Shown: piece after piece, positions 4,046 to 15,820 of the stretch | Layout: the number at the start of each line of letters is the position of its first letter | How positions within the stretch are numbered: the stretch's first letter is position 1 | Virus record (IMG/VR): IMGVR_UViG_3300032007_000002 | From: a virus | Lineage: Duplodnaviria; Heunggongvirae; Uroviricota; Caudoviricetes | DNA length: 64,000 bases | Strand: one strand, 5' to 3' | Position numbers and translations under genes: made by a program | Notes under the pieces: model-generated | What the model was told of the DNA's origin: nothing | The model's database searches: none | What the model saw: the letters and a program-made list of their open reading frames with translations, nothing else

Positions 4046-4487
4046 CGCCGACCTCCCATCCTTTCTGGCGGATAAAGACATTCGCCACATGGAACCCTTC
4101 CGGGCAGTCCTTTTCCGGGTCGAGACCGAGTATCTTCGCGCCTTTCAGGTTGAGCGGGACCAGGTCCTCGACCTTGTCCTCGACGGCGTGGGTGATGGCG
4201 GAATCGACGACATCGTCGTCGGCCATCTTGTCAACCTTGGTCTCCTTTCCGAAGACCTTCTGCATCTCCTTCCTGAGACGCGCCATGAGGAACGGATCCG
4301 CGCCGTATTGCGGGGTGTCCCCGTCGCCCTTGCGGGCTTCCAGGTACTTGTCCACGAACCCGCGGAGTTCCTCGTCGATTTCGATGTCGAAGAGCTTCTT
4401 GATCGTGACCGGCGGGCGGAACATCGGCAGGTCGGTCGCGTCGGACTTCAGCATCGTCTGTGCTGTGAACGTAGTTGTTATCTGCAT
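4029..4487 (-). CDS. Hypothetical protein
   Basis: ORF overlapping both neighbours in the minus-strand operon. Confidence 0.7.
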   Translation of the reverse strand: MQITTTFTAQTMLKSDATDLPMFRPPVTIKKLFDIEIDEELRGFVDKYLEARKGDGDTPQYGADPFLMARLRKEMQKVFGKETKVDKMADDDVVDSAITHAVEDKVEDLVPLNLKGAKILGLDPEKDCPEGFHVANVFIRQKGWEVGDATAR

Positions 4488-5290
4488 ATAATTTTCTCGA
4501 TGTCGGACCACTTCACCTTGCTGTACTTCATCACGTTGGCAAACGAGGTGTAGATGTTCCTGATGCGCTCGACCGTGCCCGGATGGGAGTCCATGCCGTC
4601 ATAGTTCTCGCGTTTCTTGCTGGTGAACATGAGGGACGCCATCTGGCATACAAAGGCTACGGCACCCAGTGCGCCGGTCCCGAGGGACTGAAGGACGGAA
4701 CATGCAAAGATGTCCGCACTTCGCTCGTCGTTGCGGTTGGTTGCGCCCGGATCGGCGCCCTGTCCGCGGAGCGAGTGCCACAGGCATACATGCCCCGCCT
4801 CGTGGGCGAGGACGCACGTCACCATCATCTGGAACATCCTGCGGGAAAGGTCGAGAAAGTAGCCGTCGGTCGGCAGGTTGAACTGGGCCATCATTTCGTT
4901 CATCACGTCGCCCGGGGAATTGAGGATAGAATCCACATGGGCGCTCTGGAACCTGAGCATCTTCTTCGCCTTGCCGGTGTTCCCGCCCATGAACAATACG
5001 GACGCGAACAGCGCGGAAACCCGGAGCCAACACATGATGCCGCGGGTAAACCTGATGGTCGGGTAATATTTGTGGGTCTTCTCGTCGACACGGAGACCGC
5101 CGTATGCGTTGATTACATCGGTCTTCTCGTCGTCATATTCGAACTGGCAATGGCTTGCGGGTGCCGCATGGGCAGGGTTGGCCATGATATAGGGGCTTCC
5201 AAGGACGAGCGTCCTTGCGTCGTAGAGAACCCGCATGAAGGATTTTTCGATCGCTTCGGAATCGTAGATTGGTTCAACTAGGCAGGGCAT
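4478..5290 (-). CDS. M48-like zinc metallopeptidase
   Basis: VLAHEAGH (HExxH), downstream E..AD (DERSAD) and SHPGTVERI motif typical of M48. Confidence 0.8.
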   Translation of the reverse strand: MPCLVEPIYDSEAIEKSFMRVLYDARTLVLGSPYIMANPAHAAPASHCQFEYDDEKTDVINAYGGLRVDEKTHKYYPTIRFTRGIMCWLRVSALFASVLFMGGNTGKAKKMLRFQSAHVDSILNSPGDVMNEMMAQFNLPTDGYFLDLSRRMFQMMVTCVLAHEAGHVCLWHSLRGQGADPGATNRNDERSADIFACSVLQSLGTGALGAVAFVCQMASLMFTSKKRENYDGMDSHPGTVERIRNIYTSFANVMKYSKVKWSDIEKIICR

Positions 5291-6345: not shown

Positions 6346-6974
6346 TGATGAACGACCCACTCTACGATTACGACAGCGCGAACAACCTCGCCGCGGCATG
6401 TGACGCCGCGTCGGAGCAGTCCGAGGAAAAGCAGGAGAAACTTGACCCGAACCGGTTCAAGGCCTACGTCGAGACCCCGGACAAGATACCGGAAGAGCGG
6501 CTGAACCAGCTCGTCGCAATCATCGACGGGAAGTATTCGTCCACGCCGAAGGATGCCGAGGTGGCGACCCGCCCGGTCCCGGCGACGCTCGACCGGCTCC
6601 TCAACTCCGACACCGTCGTGTATATATGCGACGAGGAGAACGGCGGCAACCCGGTGGCGGTCGCGACAATCGTCGACCCGACGCAGGAATCCTACCAGGG
6701 CTTCCGCCCGGTGGAGATTTATTCCCTCCTCACGGACAAGAACTTCGACGGCATGCTCCAGCAGGAGTTCTTCGCCGTTGACGAAGGCTACCGCGGCATG
6801 GGCCTCGGGACGGAGCTCCGTGCCCAGATAGCGAAGCTCGGCATCACTACGTTCACCGTGGTTGACGCGGATGACCGCGAGACCATGGTCGGCATGATCA
6901 ACAACGGTTACGAGATGGTCGCGGTAGTCCCCGACGACGGTTCCGGCCACCCCGTCCAAATCTGGGTAGGATAA
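6345..6974 (+). CDS. GNAT-fold acetyltransferase-like protein
   Basis: FAVDEGYRGMGLG resembles acetyl-CoA-binding motif A. Confidence 0.6.
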   Translation: MMNDPLYDYDSANNLAAACDAASEQSEEKQEKLDPNRFKAYVETPDKIPEERLNQLVAIIDGKYSSTPKDAEVATRPVPATLDRLLNSDTVVYICDEENGGNPVAVATIVDPTQESYQGFRPVEIYSLLTDKNFDGMLQQEFFAVDEGYRGMGLGTELRAQIAKLGITTFTVVDADDRETMVGMINNGYEMVAVVPDDGSGHPVQIWVG

Positions 6975-7438: not shown

Positions 7439-7993
7439 ATGCGTTCACGCGACGAAATCAAGGCTTTCCTTAAACGAATGAACAGGTTCGACGGAAGCAT
7501 GGTCCAGAAGGCATGCGAGTTCGCGACATTCGCGCACGAGGGCCAGCTGGACAAGAGCGGCCAGGAATATGTGCAGCACCCGACCCGGGTGGCCAATGCG
7601 CTTGACCGCCAGTATGGGGACGACTCAATCACCGCAATCGCCTATCTCCACGACGTAATAGAGGAAGGGAACATGACCACATCGGACCTCATGCTCTATT
7701 TCCCGGAGGTCGTGTGGAAATGCGTGGAAATCCTCACCAGGCGCAAGAGCCTCGGCAGGGACGACTACATCAAGAAGGTCGGCGAGAACCTCATCACGAC
7801 GAAGATCAAGCTGGCCGACCTCGAAGACAACATGTCGATTGTCGGCAACAACTTGAAGAGCGACAAGGACTACGAGCGCTACGACAGGTACCAGAAGGAG
7901 TTCAACTACCTCAGCAGCCGCCTCGCGGAGTTCCGTGCAACCCTTTCCGAGGACGAACAGGCCACCGAAATGTATGCAAATTTCTTCATGTAG
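7439..7993 (+). CDS. RelA/SpoT-type HD-domain hydrolase (small alarmone hydrolase-like)
   Basis: FAHEGQLDKSGQEYVQHPTRVA, YLHDVIEE and IKLADLEDN match SpoT/Mesh1 hydrolase motifs; no synthetase domain. Confidence 0.85.
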   Translation: MRSRDEIKAFLKRMNRFDGSMVQKACEFATFAHEGQLDKSGQEYVQHPTRVANALDRQYGDDSITAIAYLHDVIEEGNMTTSDLMLYFPEVVWKCVEILTRRKSLGRDDYIKKVGENLITTKIKLADLEDNMSIVGNNLKSDKDYERYDRYQKEFNYLSSRLAEFRATLSEDEQATEMYANFFM

Positions 7994-8066
7994 GGGCCTA
8001 TTTCTTACGGGAAACTTACACAAAACTTATTTATTTATTATTTCTTCAAAATGGGGTCAAAAACCC

Positions 8067-8095
8067 TTGCCGGATGAAAAATAAATTGCTAAACT
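8067..8095 (+). promoter_or_regulatory. Sigma70-type promoter of the tRNA operon
   Basis: TTGCCG-17 bp-TAAACT with extended TG and an AT-rich upstream region. Confidence 0.7.
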
Positions 8096-8118
8096 TAATG
8101 GCAGAAAAGGAAAACACC

Positions 8119-8220
8119 ATGAAGCAACTATTTTCAGCATATCTCTCGAATGAACGCTTGGCATCCAGCAATGCCAGCCGTCATTTCGCATGCTATGCCG
8201 AAAGTGGCCTGCCCGGGTGA
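8119..8220 (+). CDS. 33-aa leader peptide of the tRNA-operon attenuator (MKQLFSAYLSNERLASSNASRHFACYAESGLPG)
   Basis: AAGGA RBS; composition matches the downstream tRNA set; 3' end overlaps the antiterminator strand. Confidence 0.8.
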   Translation: MKQLFSAYLSNERLASSNASRHFACYAESGLPG

Positions 8221-8265
8221 TAACCTCTTCTTCTTAGCCTTACTCGAAGAGAACCCCGGTGCAGG
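8208..8265 (+). promoter_or_regulatory. Antiterminator hairpin
   Basis: CCTGCCCGGG (8208-8217) pairs with CCCGG-t-GCAGG (8255-8265); CTCTTC (8225-8230) pairs with GAAGAG (8246-8251). Confidence 0.75.
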
Positions 8266-8290
8266 AAAACTGAACCGGGGTTCTTTCGTT
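8250..8290 (+). terminator. Conditional intrinsic terminator (attenuator) before the tRNA array
   Basis: AGAACCCCGGT-g-CAG-GAAAA-CTG-a-ACCGGGGTTCT with U-rich tail TTCTTTCGTT, 15 nt before the first tRNA. Confidence 0.8.
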
Positions 8291-8305
8291 AGGCGGCAAA
8301 CATTT

Positions 8306-8379
8306 GGGGGTGTAGCTCAGTTGGAAGAGCGCCTGATTTGCAATCAGGAGGTCATGGGTTCGAATCCCATCACGTTCCA
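8306..8379 (+). tRNA. tRNA-Ala(UGC)
   Basis: Cloverleaf; loop TTTGCAA; G3:U70; extra base in the 3' acceptor strand. Confidence 0.92.
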
Positions 8380-8389
8380 CTAAGACATT

Positions 8390-8463
8390 GGGGGTGTAGC
8401 TCAGTTGGAAGAGCGCCTGGTCCGCAACCAGGAGGTCATGGGTTCGAATCCCATCACGTTCCA
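8390..8463 (+). tRNA. tRNA-Ala(CGC)
   Basis: Same body as the first tRNA; loop TCCGCAA (C33). Confidence 0.85.
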
Positions 8464-8475
8464 CTAAGACATTTT

Positions 8476-8549
8476 GGGCCATTAGCTCAGCTGGTAGAGC
8501 GCCTGCATGGCATGCAGGAAGTCATCGGTTCGATCCCGATATGTGTCCA
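8476..8549 (+). tRNA. tRNA-Ala(GGC)
   Basis: Loop ATGGCAT; G3:U70; bulged acceptor stem. Confidence 0.92.
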
Positions 8550-8557
8550 CTAAAATT

Positions 8558-8631
8558 GGGGGTGTAGCTCAGTTGGAAGAGCGCCTGCATGGCATGCAGG
8601 AGGTCATGGGTTCGAATCCCATCACGTTCCA
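8558..8631 (+). tRNA. tRNA-Ala(GGC), second copy
   Basis: Body of the first tRNA with the anticodon arm of the third. Confidence 0.92.
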
Positions 8632-8635
8632 CTAT

Positions 8636-8708
8636 AGTTGCGTAGCTCAACTGGAAGAGCATCTCGCTACGAACGAGAAGGTTGTGGGTTCGACTCCCGC
8701 CGTGACCA
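8636..8708 (+). tRNA. tRNA-Arg(ACG)
   Basis: TCTCG-CTACGAA-CGAGA; A1xC72 mismatch. Confidence 0.9.
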
Positions 8709-8721
8709 CTAAGAAATTTTC

Positions 8722-8794
8722 GGGGCTGTAGCTCAGCTGGTAGAGCGGAGGATTGAAGATCCTCGCGTCGGTGGTTCGATTCCACCCGGCCCCA
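8722..8794 (+). tRNA. tRNA-Phe(GAA)
   Basis: GAGGA-TTGAAGA-TCCTC. Confidence 0.93.
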
Positions 8795-8807
8795 CTAAAA
8801 CATTTTT

Positions 8808-8880
8808 GGCCCATTCGTCTAGTGGACTAGGACAGTTGGTTTTCAGCCAAGGAACGTCGGTTCGAATCCGGCATGGGCTA
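8808..8880 (+). tRNA. tRNA-Glu(UUC)
   Basis: TTGG-TTTTCAG-CCAA; acceptor GGCCCAT/ATGGGCT. Confidence 0.9.
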
Positions 8881-8891
8881 CTAAAAATTAT

Positions 8892-8964
8892 TCCACCTTA
8901 GCTCAGTTGGTAGAGCGCCCGACTGTTAATCGGATGGTCCCTGGTTCGAGTCCAGGAGGTGGAG
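8892..8964 (+). tRNA. tRNA-Asn(GUU)
   Basis: CCGA-CTGTTAA-TCGG; U1-A72, G73. Confidence 0.93.
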
Positions 8965-8968
8965 CTAT

Positions 8969-9052
8969 GGAAGCGCAAGAGACTGGCGACTCAAGCGGTC
9001 TTGAAAACCGTGGTTCCGCAAGGGCTTGGGGGTTCGACTCCCTCCGCTTCCG
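8969..9052 (+). tRNA. tRNA-Ser(UGA)
   Basis: GCGGT-CTTGAAA-ACCGT; long variable arm; G73; atypical D arm. Confidence 0.85.
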
Positions 9053-9064
9053 CGAAGACATTTT

Positions 9065-9153
9065 GGGTAGGTATGCAAGCTGGTTTGAAGCAGCCTGACT
9101 GTAAATCAGGTCCCTTTGGGTAAACATCACAGGTTCGAATCCTGTCCTGCCCA
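9065..9153 (+). tRNA. tRNA-Tyr(GUA)
   Basis: CCTGA-CTGTAAA-TCAGG; long variable arm. Confidence 0.92.
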
Positions 9154-9164
9154 CTAGACATTTT

Positions 9165-9253
9165 GGAGACATGGCCGAGCTGGTTTAAGGCGCGGCGGTG
9201 CTAACGCCGTGGGGCCCTCAAAGCCCCCGCAGGTTCGAATCCTGCTGTCTCCT
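9165..9253 (+). tRNA. tRNA-Ser(GCU)
   Basis: CGGCG-GTGCTAA-CGCCG; long variable arm. Confidence 0.9.
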
Positions 9254-9284
9254 CTACGAATTTTCTTACTAACGGAGTATCCTC

Positions 9285-9410
9285 ATGGTACGCGACAACA
9301 TCACATTCTGGCTACTGCTCCTCACGGTCATTTCCCTGATCGTGCTTGGCTTGCTATTACCGGGCCATTGTTGTCATCAAGTTACCGGAGCTCCGATTCT
9401 CCTACAATAA
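9285..9410 (+). CDS. 41-aa single-pass membrane peptide inside the tRNA array
   Basis: GGAG RBS; MVRDNITFWLLLLTVISLIVLGLLLPGHCCHQVTGAPILLQ fills the gap between two tRNAs. Confidence 0.65.
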   Translation: MVRDNITFWLLLLTVISLIVLGLLLPGHCCHQVTGAPILLQ

Positions 9411-9426
9411 AAACATCGGCACTTAT

Positions 9427-9501
9427 GGTGCGCCGTAGCTCAACTGGTGGAGCCCTGCCCTGTGAAGGCAGCCGTTGCGGGTTCGAGTCCCGTCGGTCAC
9501 C
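9427..9501 (+). tRNA. tRNA-His(GUG)
   Basis: CTGCC-CTGTGAA-GGCAG; G-1:C73; bulged C in the 5' acceptor strand. Confidence 0.9.
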
Positions 9502-9507
9502 CTACGC

Positions 9508-9591
9508 CTCGTCGTGGCGGAACTGGTAGACGCGCAGGTTTGAGAGGCCTGTGCCCGAAAGGGCGTGTGGGTTCGAGTCCCACCGACGAGA
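9508..9591 (+). tRNA. tRNA-Leu(GAG)
   Basis: CAGGT-TTGAGAG-GCCTG; variable arm; A73. Confidence 0.92.
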
Positions 9592-9595
9592 TAAT

Positions 9596-9677
9596 CGGCT
9601 ATTGGCGGAATTGGCAGACGCGGACGATTTAAGATCGTCTGTCGCAAGACGTGTGGGTTCGATGCCCTCATGGCCGA
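9596..9677 (+). tRNA. tRNA-Leu(UAA)
   Basis: GACGA-TTTAAGA-TCGTC. Confidence 0.9.
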
Positions 9678-9682
9678 CTAAA

Positions 9683-9766
9683 CGGCAGGTGGCGTAATTG
9701 GTAGCCGCGCCGCACTCAGGATGCGGTGTCCGAAAGGGCGTGCGGGTTCGAGTCCCGCCCTGCCGA
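9683..9766 (+). tRNA. tRNA-Leu(CAG)
   Basis: CCGCA-CTCAGGA-TGCGG. Confidence 0.92.
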
Positions 9767-9774
9767 CTAAATTT

Positions 9775-9845
9775 TGGGCCGTGGTGTAATGGTAGCACTA
9801 GGGGCTTTGAACCCCTCGGATGACGTTCGAGCCGTCACCGCCCAA
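9775..9845 (+). tRNA. tRNA-Gln(UUG)
   Basis: AGGGG-CTTTGAA-CCCCT; U1-A72. Confidence 0.88.
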
Positions 9846-9848
9846 TAC

Positions 9849-9930
9849 CCCTTCGTGGCGGAACTGGTAGACGCGCTCGGTTCAAACCCTTGTGCTGAAA
9901 GGCGTGGGAGTTCGACTCTCCCCGAAGGGA
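9849..9930 (+). tRNA. tRNA-Leu(CAA) with disrupted anticodon stem
   Basis: Leu-type body; CTCGG-TTCAAAC-CCTTG has two stem mismatches. Confidence 0.75.
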
Positions 9931-9940
9931 CTACATCTAT

Positions 9941-10014
9941 GCACTCGTAGCCAAGTTGGTCAAGGCAGGGGCCTGCAAAGCCCCCATGCGAAGGTTCGAG
10001 CCCTTCCGAGTGCT
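9941..10014 (+). tRNA. tRNA-Cys(GCA)
   Basis: GGGGC-CTGCAAA-GCCCC; U73. Confidence 0.92.
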
Positions 10015-10392
10015 CTACATTACCTTAGTGGGATCAAGACCGTTGATGTATTCGACGGTCTTTTTCAACGGCTTGTCATAGAGCGACACGATCATGTCGA
10101 AGTCCGTCACGCTGCCGTAATGGCCGTAGAAAGCGCCGACCAGCTTCGAGACGACAAGGTCGCCCTGGATGCTGGGGGGCACCCCGAGCGCGGCCCGCAA
10201 CGCGTTGAAGCAGACCGTGCGCATGCGGTCACGGCAGAAACTGTTCATCTTCGCCGGGTTCATTTCCCCATAGAACATGAACGTTTCGGATATTATCTCA
10301 TGCGGGGTCTTCTGCGGCTCGGCATCGGTGCCGATCGGCGGGCTGGAAATCTCCCCGTGAAACCTGTCATAGCCGGTAATTTCCCAATCCAT
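10015..10392 (-). CDS. Hypothetical protein
   Basis: AGGAGG RBS; end of a minus-strand operon. Confidence 0.7.
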   Translation of the reverse strand: MDWEITGYDRFHGEISSPPIGTDAEPQKTPHEIISETFMFYGEMNPAKMNSFCRDRMRTVCFNALRAALGVPPSIQGDLVVSKLVGAFYGHYGSVTDFDMIVSLYDKPLKKTVEYINGLDPTKVM

Positions 10393-14614: not shown

Positions 14615-15820
14615 TTATCCCTCCGACGCCTTGAAGTTGTAGATCGGGCGGATGCGCTCGACGATGTCGGCGGTCGGCTCGATGTTGCGCATAATTTCAT
14701 CGAACGGCTTGTAGGCCATCGGGCTCTCGTCAATCGTCCCGGTCGAAACGCAGGTCGTGTAGATGCCTTCCATGGAAGCCTTGAAGTCTTCCATCCTGAG
14801 CGTCTCCTTGGCCTTGGAACGGGACATGAGACGGCCTGCACCGTGCGGGCCGGAACAGTTCCAGTCGGGGTTGCCCTTGCCGCGGACGATAAGGGAACCA
14901 TCACGCATGTTCATCGGAATTAGTGCAATCTCATCCTTCTGCAATGAGATTGCTCCCTTGCGCAAAATCCTATGTTCCAAGTCAACGTAATTGTGCATGG
15001 TACACCACTTATCCAGCACATACCTTGGCTTGATACCCAGGCCGTCAACCAGCACGTCCATCATTGCCTCGCGGTTCCAGATGGCAAACTCCTGCGCAAT
15101 CTTCATGTCATGTAGGTAGTCTTCCATGAGGGCGCCTTCGAGATAGGCGAGCTCGTTCGGGATTGCCGGACGGTCCGCGTTCATCTTCTGCAAGGTTTCC
15201 TCGATTTCGCGCTCGCGACCAGCCTTTTTCAGCTGCTTGATGGCATCCTGCATCGCCGCACGGTCGTTGCGGTGATACTTGATCGCGAGGTCCTGGTAAT
15301 AGCGGCATACCTCGATGCCGAGGTGCCGGGAACCGGAGTGGATGACGATGTAGTGGTTGCCTGCATCGTCTACGTTGATTTCGCCGAAGTGGTTGCCCCC
15401 GCCGAGTGTCCCGATGGACAGTTTCAGCTTGTCCACGTTCACCGGGGCAATCATGCTTTCGAGGTCAGCCTTGTCAGCATACTTGTGCTTGGACTTGCGG
15501 TGGTTCATACCGGACGGGATGTCACGGTGCCAAATCTTGTCCACCTGCTTCAGGTCGAACGCGAACGACTTGTCCACTTTGAGGACAAGCATAGAACACC
15601 CGATGTCCACCCCCACCAGGTTCGGGACCACCTTGTCGGTAATCCTTGCCGTGAGGCCGATAACGCAACCCACGCCCGCGTGGCAGTCGGGCATGATTGC
15701 GCAGTTGGAACCCGCCGCGAACGGCTGGTTCATCAAGTTCATTATCTGCTTAAGCGCGGCCTCCTCGACATTGTCGGTATAGACCTTCGCCGTGCAGTAT
15801 TTTCCCGGAATTTCTATCAT
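14615..15820 (-). CDS. rtcB: RtcB RNA 3'-phosphate/5'-OH ligase
   Basis: MPDCHAG, VGVDIGC, GTLGGGNHF, HSGSR, HNY, RKGA, HGAGR, DESPMAYK motifs. Confidence 0.96.
   Translation of the reverse strand: MIEIPGKYCTAKVYTDNVEEAALKQIMNLMNQPFAAGSNCAIMPDCHAGVGCVIGLTARITDKVVPNLVGVDIGCSMLVLKVDKSFAFDLKQVDKIWHRDIPSGMNHRKSKHKYADKADLESMIAPVNVDKLKLSIGTLGGGNHFGEINVDDAGNHYIVIHSGSRHLGIEVCRYYQDLAIKYHRNDRAAMQDAIKQLKKAGREREIEETLQKMNADRPAIPNELAYLEGALMEDYLHDMKIAQEFAIWNREAMMDVLVDGLGIKPRYVLDKWCTMHNYVDLEHRILRKGAISLQKDEIALIPMNMRDGSLIVRGKGNPDWNCSGPHGAGRLMSRSKAKETLRMEDFKASMEGIYTTCVSTGTIDESPMAYKPFDEIMRNIEPTADIVERIRPIYNFKASEG

Follow-up and report, generated by a model that had tools for sequence, protein, structure and literature searches.

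Introduction

Transcription attenuation by a leader peptide is known from trpL and hisL, from the ilvGMEDA leader, which senses Ile, Leu and Val, and from the thr leader, which senses Thr and Ile. In each of these systems, an intrinsic terminator follows a promoter-proximal mini-ORF (open reading frame) whose regulatory codons match the product supplied by the operon. An antiterminator overlaps the end of the ORF and is mutually exclusive with the terminator, there is a leader hairpin, and the decision is made kinetically by the position of the ribosome. The pheM leader attenuator of E. coli pheST, which encodes phenylalanyl-tRNA synthetase, applies leader-peptide attenuation to a component of the translation apparatus through the decoding speed of cognate codons. 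The theory of attenuators has been treated elsewhere (PMC1183508). Here, we analyze a 64,000-nucleotide (nt) stretch of DNA (the window) from a virus of the Caudoviricetes, IMG/VR record IMGVR_UViG_3300032007_000002, in which a short leader ORF precedes an array of transfer RNA (tRNA) genes. We consider it likely that this locus is a ribosome-mediated, leader-peptide transcription attenuator which controls a phage tRNA operon.

The locus contains a promoter-proximal ORF with a ribosome-binding site, codons that are cognate to the array at the amino acid level, a predicted terminator, and an antiterminator that excludes the terminator and could be covered by a ribosome at the end of the ORF. 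Compared with the ilv, thr, trpL and hisL attenuators, it would regulate tRNAs instead of enzymes and would sense between 7 and 11 amino acids. It is also phage-encoded, its cognate codons are dispersed instead of being arranged in tandem runs, and its ORF hairpin and antiterminator are compatible rather than exclusive. The pheST attenuator differs from it by sensing one amino acid, by having a protein-coding target, and by belonging to a cellular gene. By analogy, the known attenuators that the phage locus appears to resemble most in its logic are the multivalent ilv and thr leaders and the pheST leader.

T-box riboswitches also read the status of tRNAs and choose between a terminator and an antiterminator upstream of aminoacylation-related genes, but they bind uncharged tRNA directly and without translation, whereas the phage locus conserves a translatable ORF. 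An Rfam search of positions 7900-10200 returned no T-box match at E ≤ 1 and no match to the leader families (His, Trp, Leu, Thr and Phe leaders) at the same threshold. Leader ORFs that sense stalling have been described for ermC and vmlR (PMC9226507) and for whiB7, whose upstream ORF responds to alanine (PMC10274678). In those systems, as would be the case here, ribosome stalling within a short upstream ORF reshapes the downstream RNA and turns the gene on; unlike the phage leader, they sense drugs or one amino acid and have no alphabet matched to a tRNA set. Passages in three papers describe phage tRNAs as replacements for scarce or cleaved host tRNAs (PMC10264068, PMC11464382, PMC11555353). 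The main text of PMC10264068 mentions attenuator, leader and terminator nowhere. An initial reading of the window from its letters alone (the sequence-only reading) knew of no such system for phage tRNA arrays, and our full-text literature search likewise found no description of leader-peptide attenuation controlling phage tRNAs or tRNA genes.

The leader alphabet follows the tRNA repertoire

The array comprises 18 tRNA genes, 17 of them called by ARAGORN and the last, a His(GUG)-like gene, added by Rfam. They serve 11 amino acids (Ala, Arg, Phe, Glu, Asn, Ser, Tyr, His, Leu, Gln and Cys), as the sequence-only reading had counted. Codons 3-29 of the leader, which we call the sensor run, use only these amino acids and use all of them, and this alphabet fits the whole downstream array, not just its first block. 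Based on the amino acid usage of the phage's long ORFs, the set makes up a fraction of 0.56 in the window, so that 27 such residues in a row have a chance value of 0.56^27 = 1.6 × 10−7, compared with the initial estimate of about 10−6. No in-set run in any of the six frames of the 64-kb window is longer (the runner-up has 20 codons), and no other run uses all 11 amino acids. Each amino acid is represented by 1-6 dispersed codons, with no tandem runs.

Relatives were reached through homologues of the HD-domain protein encoded next to the leader that lie in the same synteny, together with one IMG/VR contig and two metagenome contigs, and they form three lineages. Lineage A consists of the window, L091 and L001 and serves 11 amino acids. 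Lineage B (L003-L006, L074 and L090), whose HD protein is 91% identical, has the same array minus tRNA-Arg and serves 10. Lineage C (L007-L009), at 82% identity, has an array of Phe, Glu, Ser, Tyr, Ser, His, four Leu and Cys and therefore serves 7. ARAGORN and Rfam were concordant on these contents.

The leader ORF is exactly 33 codons long in each lineage, although blastn aligns only about 60-80 nt between lineages A and C, at the promoter-proximal end of the leader. In L003 (lineage B) and L007 (lineage C), the leader region lies at 6629-6858 and 6608-6826, respectively. The composition of the leader changes with the array. The lineage B leader has no Arg, and all 8 residues that differ from lineage A fall inside the 10-letter set of lineage B. 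The 7 amino acids of lineage C are exactly those found at codons 4-25 of its leader; outside this run, Ala and Asn persist, confined to the final eight codons, as does Gln at codon 2. Every amino acid of a lineage's own set is present in its sensor run, and out-of-set residues are restricted to the first 2-3 and the last 4-8 codons. The chance values, computed as f^n, are 1.6 × 10−7 (A), 1.6 × 10−9 (B) and 1.3 × 10−11 (C). The sequence-only reading had named homologous arrays with leaders unrelated to their tRNA content as the outcome that would count against it; we found that the sensor alphabet equals the lineage's own repertoire in 3/3 lineages (11, 10 and 7 amino acids). An array script applied to the lineages recovered the leader with P of about 10−7 in B and C and P = 1.6 × 10−4 in the window, whose tRNA-His is missed by ARAGORN.

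Conserved alternative folds and a proposed mechanism

The signals in front of the ORF are also conserved (Table 1). The promoter proposed by the sequence-only reading keeps an invariant −10 block and its 17-nt spacing in all three lineages, and the −35 element of lineage C is the consensus. The window promoter is absent from the list of our consensus scan because its score is only 8/12. The ORF was found where that reading had placed it, as was a ribosome-binding site in front of it, and both are kept throughout.

The leader RNA is strongly structured (−79 kcal/mol, z = −5.8), and four elements recur in lineages A, B and C: a hairpin inside the ORF, a pairing of the start region, an antiterminator and a terminator. 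RNAalifold identified 10 pairs that were changed on both sides yet kept, mostly in the ORF hairpin. In lineage B, a compensatory change of one pair alters two codons, neither of which leaves the set. The start-region pairing is the nascent fold before region 3 emerges in each lineage, with both strands differing in sequence; 74.5% of its cells are paired versus 30-51% in slid controls, and 3 pairs are changed on both sides.

The antiterminator pairings drawn by the sequence-only reading are the minimum-free-energy fold of the window's nascent RNA (−24.0 kcal/mol, z = −2.7). The same two-helix architecture occurs in lineages B and C at −20 to −22 kcal/mol, with an inner helix of different sequence in lineage C. 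Overall, 86% of antiterminator cells are paired versus 31-52% in slid controls, and a C-to-A change in L001 re-pairs with the formerly bulged U. The predicted terminator between leader and array, also proposed earlier, consists of a 15-base-pair hairpin with a U-rich tract and is retained throughout the three lineages, of which C has the strongest U tract. It is unlisted by the consensus scan because that scan allows only loops of 3-8 nt. The first tRNA starts 16 nt past the U tract.

Table 1. Features of the tRNA array locus in the window
Feature	Position	Strand	Details
Sigma-70-like promoter	8067-8095	+	−35 at 8067-8072; 17-nt spacer with TG at 8087-8088; −10 at 8090-8095; read from sequence
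Start-region pairing, candidate anti-antiterminator	8103-8126	+	initiation region pairs with 8210-8231 (antiterminator 5' strand and post-stop); nascent-RNA fold
Ribosome-binding site	8107-8111	+	AAGGA, 7 nt 5' of the ATG; spacing 7-8 nt in lineages A, B and C
Leader ORF	8119-8220	+	ATG start, 33 codons and TGA, then in-frame TAA at 8221-8223
Sensor run, codons 3-29	8125-8205	+	every residue within the array's 11-amino-acid set, with all 11 represented
ORF-internal hairpin, candidate pause or timing element	8128-8207	+	in minimum-free-energy folds of all lineages
Antiterminator hairpin	8208-8265	+	outer helix 8208-8217/8255-8265 (T8260 bulged); inner helix 8225-8230/8246-8251
Intrinsic terminator, predicted	8249-8290	+	stem 8249-8285 (12 + 3 base pairs); GC core 8254-8260/8274-8280; U-rich tract 8281-8290
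tRNA array	8306-10015	+	Ala x4, Arg, Phe, Glu, Asn, Ser, Tyr, Ser, [mini-ORF], His-like, Leu x3, Gln, Leu, Cys; ARAGORN and Rfam
Second mini-ORF, possible nested sensor	9285-9410	+	own GGAG ribosome-binding site; 40-42 codons in all three lineages
His(GUG)-like tRNA	9427-9502	+	Rfam 43.7 bits, missed by ARAGORN; 1-nt insertion in 5' acceptor strand

The mechanism that we infer from this structure, with the anatomy, the statistics, the co-variation of leader and repertoire and the conserved alternative folds as its observed basis, would run as follows. Host RNA polymerase would start at the promoter, and a ribosome would load onto the leader. If the ribosome quickly reached the last codons or the stop, it would cover the 5' strand of the antiterminator (8208-8231); with this strand covered, the terminator would form and transcription would end before the first tRNA. 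If the ribosome were delayed at any of codons 3 to about 28, the strand would stay free and could pair with the 5' arm of the terminator before the 3' arm was made, letting the polymerase enter the array. The phage tRNAs so produced would speed decoding and shut the operon again, a negative feedback. The delay-sensitive codons are written only in served amino acids, and therefore the circuit would gauge the charged-tRNA supply for what the array replenishes; the phage probably makes its tRNAs only when ribosomes read those codons slowly. The outcome would depend on a kinetic competition and on a physiological trigger; mismatched codon usage, host tRNA decay or shutoff and tRNA-cleaving defences are candidates for the latter.

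We modelled the ribosome by masking its footprint on nascent RNA that lacks the 3' arm of the terminator. In this model, the antiterminator remains the best fold while the A site is at codon 26-28 or earlier and disappears only when the ribosome occupies the last 5-8 codons or the stop. The masking boundary falls within about two codons of the end of the in-set run (codon 29, 29 and 25 in A, B and C). Together with the alphabet co-variation and the conserved terminator/antiterminator geometry, this modelled boundary supports the trp/his-type attenuation logic that the sequence-only reading had put forward. Its companion suggestion, that translation shutoff would also give read-through, appears uncertain. 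With no ribosome present, the antiterminator is favoured thermodynamically by 7-12 kcal/mol; the start-region pairing, however, is the first to form in synthesis and, by engaging the antiterminator strand, could instead favour termination.

A proposed link to the anti-phage nucleases PrrC and PARIS AriB is weak and not supported here. PrrC targets tRNA-Lys. The same target is given for PARIS in a passage of PMC11464382. The Lys codon of the window's leader lies outside the sensor run, and because the array has no tRNA-Lys, we treat tRNA-cleaving defences of this kind, along with an RtcB RNA ligase gene nearby, as context only.

Weighing the proposed attenuator against other explanations

Several points weigh against the attenuator reading. 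Leader translation, termination at the hairpin and regulated read-through all rest on inference. The match between leader and array holds at the amino acid level and not demonstrably at the codon level: in two tests, which scored the sensor codons read by array anticodons and the anticodons sampled by the leader, the match was no better than in synonymous-codon shuffles (P = 0.13-0.6). The broad synonymous codon use emphasized by the sequence-only reading is real, but it does not exceed chance expectation. Equilibrium folding was rejected as the switch, since the terminator wins at every ribosome position once it is complete. It follows that the switch must be kinetic, and only the nascent-RNA model switches; the switch of the trp attenuator is likewise kinetic.

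Also on this side of the balance, column-wise counting gives 0 antiterminator pairs changed on both sides. MAFFT sets the inner helix of lineage C in another register, which precludes a formal count of covarying pairs; the support for this element comes from conserved pairing and from the replacement of a helix, an event that an alignment by columns does not capture. The His-like gene of lineage A (window and L001), with its acceptor-stem insertion, may be defective; L001 shares the window's insertion, and the aligned His tRNAs of lineages B and C are intact. Furthermore, the feature is not universal. The same script, run upstream of the arrays of three unrelated tRNA-rich phages (Rctr197k, Microbacterium Big4 and Stenotrophomonas Bhz51), found nothing better than P of about 0.02, and none of them has a matched leader. 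Finally, only three lineages were compared, and they are kin by descent.

Some of these points would be expected if the leader were an unspecific sensor of translation competence or an infection timer, reporting whether ribosomes translate at all, with an alphabet that gives no specificity. Any stall, and possibly an absent ribosome, leaves the antiterminator as the nascent minimum-free-energy fold, and the codon-anticodon match is not significant. Such a sensor gives no account of an alphabet that equals the tRNA repertoire and shifts with it in three lineages, nor of the confinement of out-of-set residues to the ends of the leader, and we regard it as unlikely. The strong structure of the RNA, for its part, would suit the 5' leader of a tRNA precursor that serves processing or stability, in which the ORF is untranslated, the hairpins provide context for ribonucleases (RNases) or RNase P, and the "terminator" is a processing or protective stem. 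The compensatory changes in the ORF hairpin need no translation, and in 3/4 metatranscriptome runs, contigs cover the leader and cross the hairpin into the first tRNA, though such assemblies may contain DNA, cannot prove RNA, and give no ends or expression levels. Structure alone leaves unexplained the conserved ribosome-binding site and 33-codon frame, the stop just past the antiterminator strand, and the alphabet that tracks the array. In addition, the compensatory pair of lineage B changes two codons that both stay in the set, and a precursor leader therefore seems to us quite unlikely.

A functional micropeptide, whose composition reflects the function of the peptide, would be consistent with the conserved 33-residue length and ribosome-binding site. 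Conservation of the peptide sequence between lineages A and C is poor, in contrast to the retained RNA pairing, and peptide function gives no reason for an alphabet that follows tRNA gene content, which makes this explanation very improbable. As for chance, the run of codons and the hypothesis were both chosen once the pattern had been seen. That a pattern picked after the fact should exceed every other in-set run in the six frames of 64 kb, with independent alphabet shifts in lineages B and C and nothing comparable in the three control phages, is scarcely credible.

A second mini-ORF and other features of the array

Within the array lies a second mini-ORF, which is also found in relatives (L001 from 7635, L003 at 7878-8006, L005 from 7759 and L007 from 7302). 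Its composition is enriched for precisely the amino acids carried by the tRNAs 3' of it (His, Leu, Gln and Cys), with P = 1.8 × 10−4 in lineage A, 1.7 × 10−5 in lineage B, where it has a 13-residue run, and 0.018 in lineage C. There is no Gln codon in lineage C, which has no tRNA-Gln. The peptide chemistry is not conserved across lineages, and the start region pairs with the ORF's own 3' end. No terminator was seen at this mini-ORF. Its composition makes it a possible candidate for a nested sensor.

The tRNA genes themselves have some unusual features. The four tRNA-Ala genes of the window (8306-8630) have an apparent bulge in the 3' acceptor strand, with G3:U70 retained. L001 (5870-6170) has in their place three tRNA-like genes with Ala anticodons and aberrant D arms, which both ARAGORN and Rfam miss. 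In the window (8378-10017), the tRNA genes are followed by CTA and not by an encoded CCA, so CCA would need to be added after processing. The otherwise collinear arrays of relatives carry unlike ORFs inserted at unlike sites (L001 6430-7226, L004 7368-8057 and L006 7239-8270). The L004 ORF has the endonuclease-associated domains DUF559 and MTES_1575, and those of L001 and L006 have no family assignment; the insertions suggest mobile elements that target tRNA clusters.

Genomic setting

The source is an uncultured giant phage of the ruminant gut. Sequencing runs from bovine, sheep and goat guts contain near-identical DNA, and related contigs span 213-473 kb. One IMG/VR relative record (213 kb, about 56% complete) has a single tRNA array. 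On the + strand, the gene for the HD-domain hydrolase (7439-7993) is followed by an AT-rich spacer with the promoter, the ribosome-binding site, the leader ORF, the hairpin and the array. A small hairpin lies just 5' of the −35 element (8053-8066), with arms that are apparently swapped between lineages A and B (G-run and C-run exchanged); it may be the transcript end of the HD gene or a terminator for the minus strand. The leader is closed in lineages A and B by two in-frame stops (TGA and TAA, 8218-8223 in the window) and in lineage C by a single TAA 3 nt further on.

The HD_4 hydrolase directly upstream of the leader is of the (p)ppGpp-hydrolase type. An RtcB-type RNA ligase gene (14615-15820, − strand, E = 4 × 10−63) lies 4.6 kb from the array, and an M48-type peptidase gene (4478-5290, − strand) has homologues in relatives that are labelled Peptidase_U49. 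With these genes, the region looks like a translation or RNA-repair neighbourhood, and we count the ligase and the hydrolase, as context, in favour of the attenuator reading. Our searches for further relatives had little yield: no array lies beside HD-protein homologues at 46-64% identity, almost no homologues were found for a neighbouring 634-amino-acid protein, a phage collection search gave no close relative, and DNA-pattern scans returned only the known lineages and chance matches.

Significance

Why and when phages need tRNA genes has long been debated, with codon supply, host tRNA decay and escape from tRNA-cleaving defences as the proposed answers. We lean toward the broader view that giant phages run a self-tuning "codon audit," in which each tRNA block is autoregulated by a mini-ORF whose alphabet is kept equal to the repertoire by evolution. 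On this view, the locus would hold a pair of nested auditors: the 5' leader would monitor the array as a whole, and the mini-ORF at 9285-9410 would monitor its His/Leu/Gln/Cys sub-block. The tRNA content of an array could then be predicted from its leader alphabet and vice versa, and leader alphabets could show which host tRNAs run short in the course of infection. The co-variation also offers a purely computational handle, as leader alphabets and array content can be compared over thousands of uncultured phages.

If the attenuator reading is true, leader-peptide attenuation would extend from enzyme genes to RNA genes and from 1-3 to 7-11 sensed amino acids, and the leader would be a natural sensor, a small reporter of how fast a chosen set of codons is decoded. 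The phage would then treat its tRNA supply as a regulated, demand-driven quantity.

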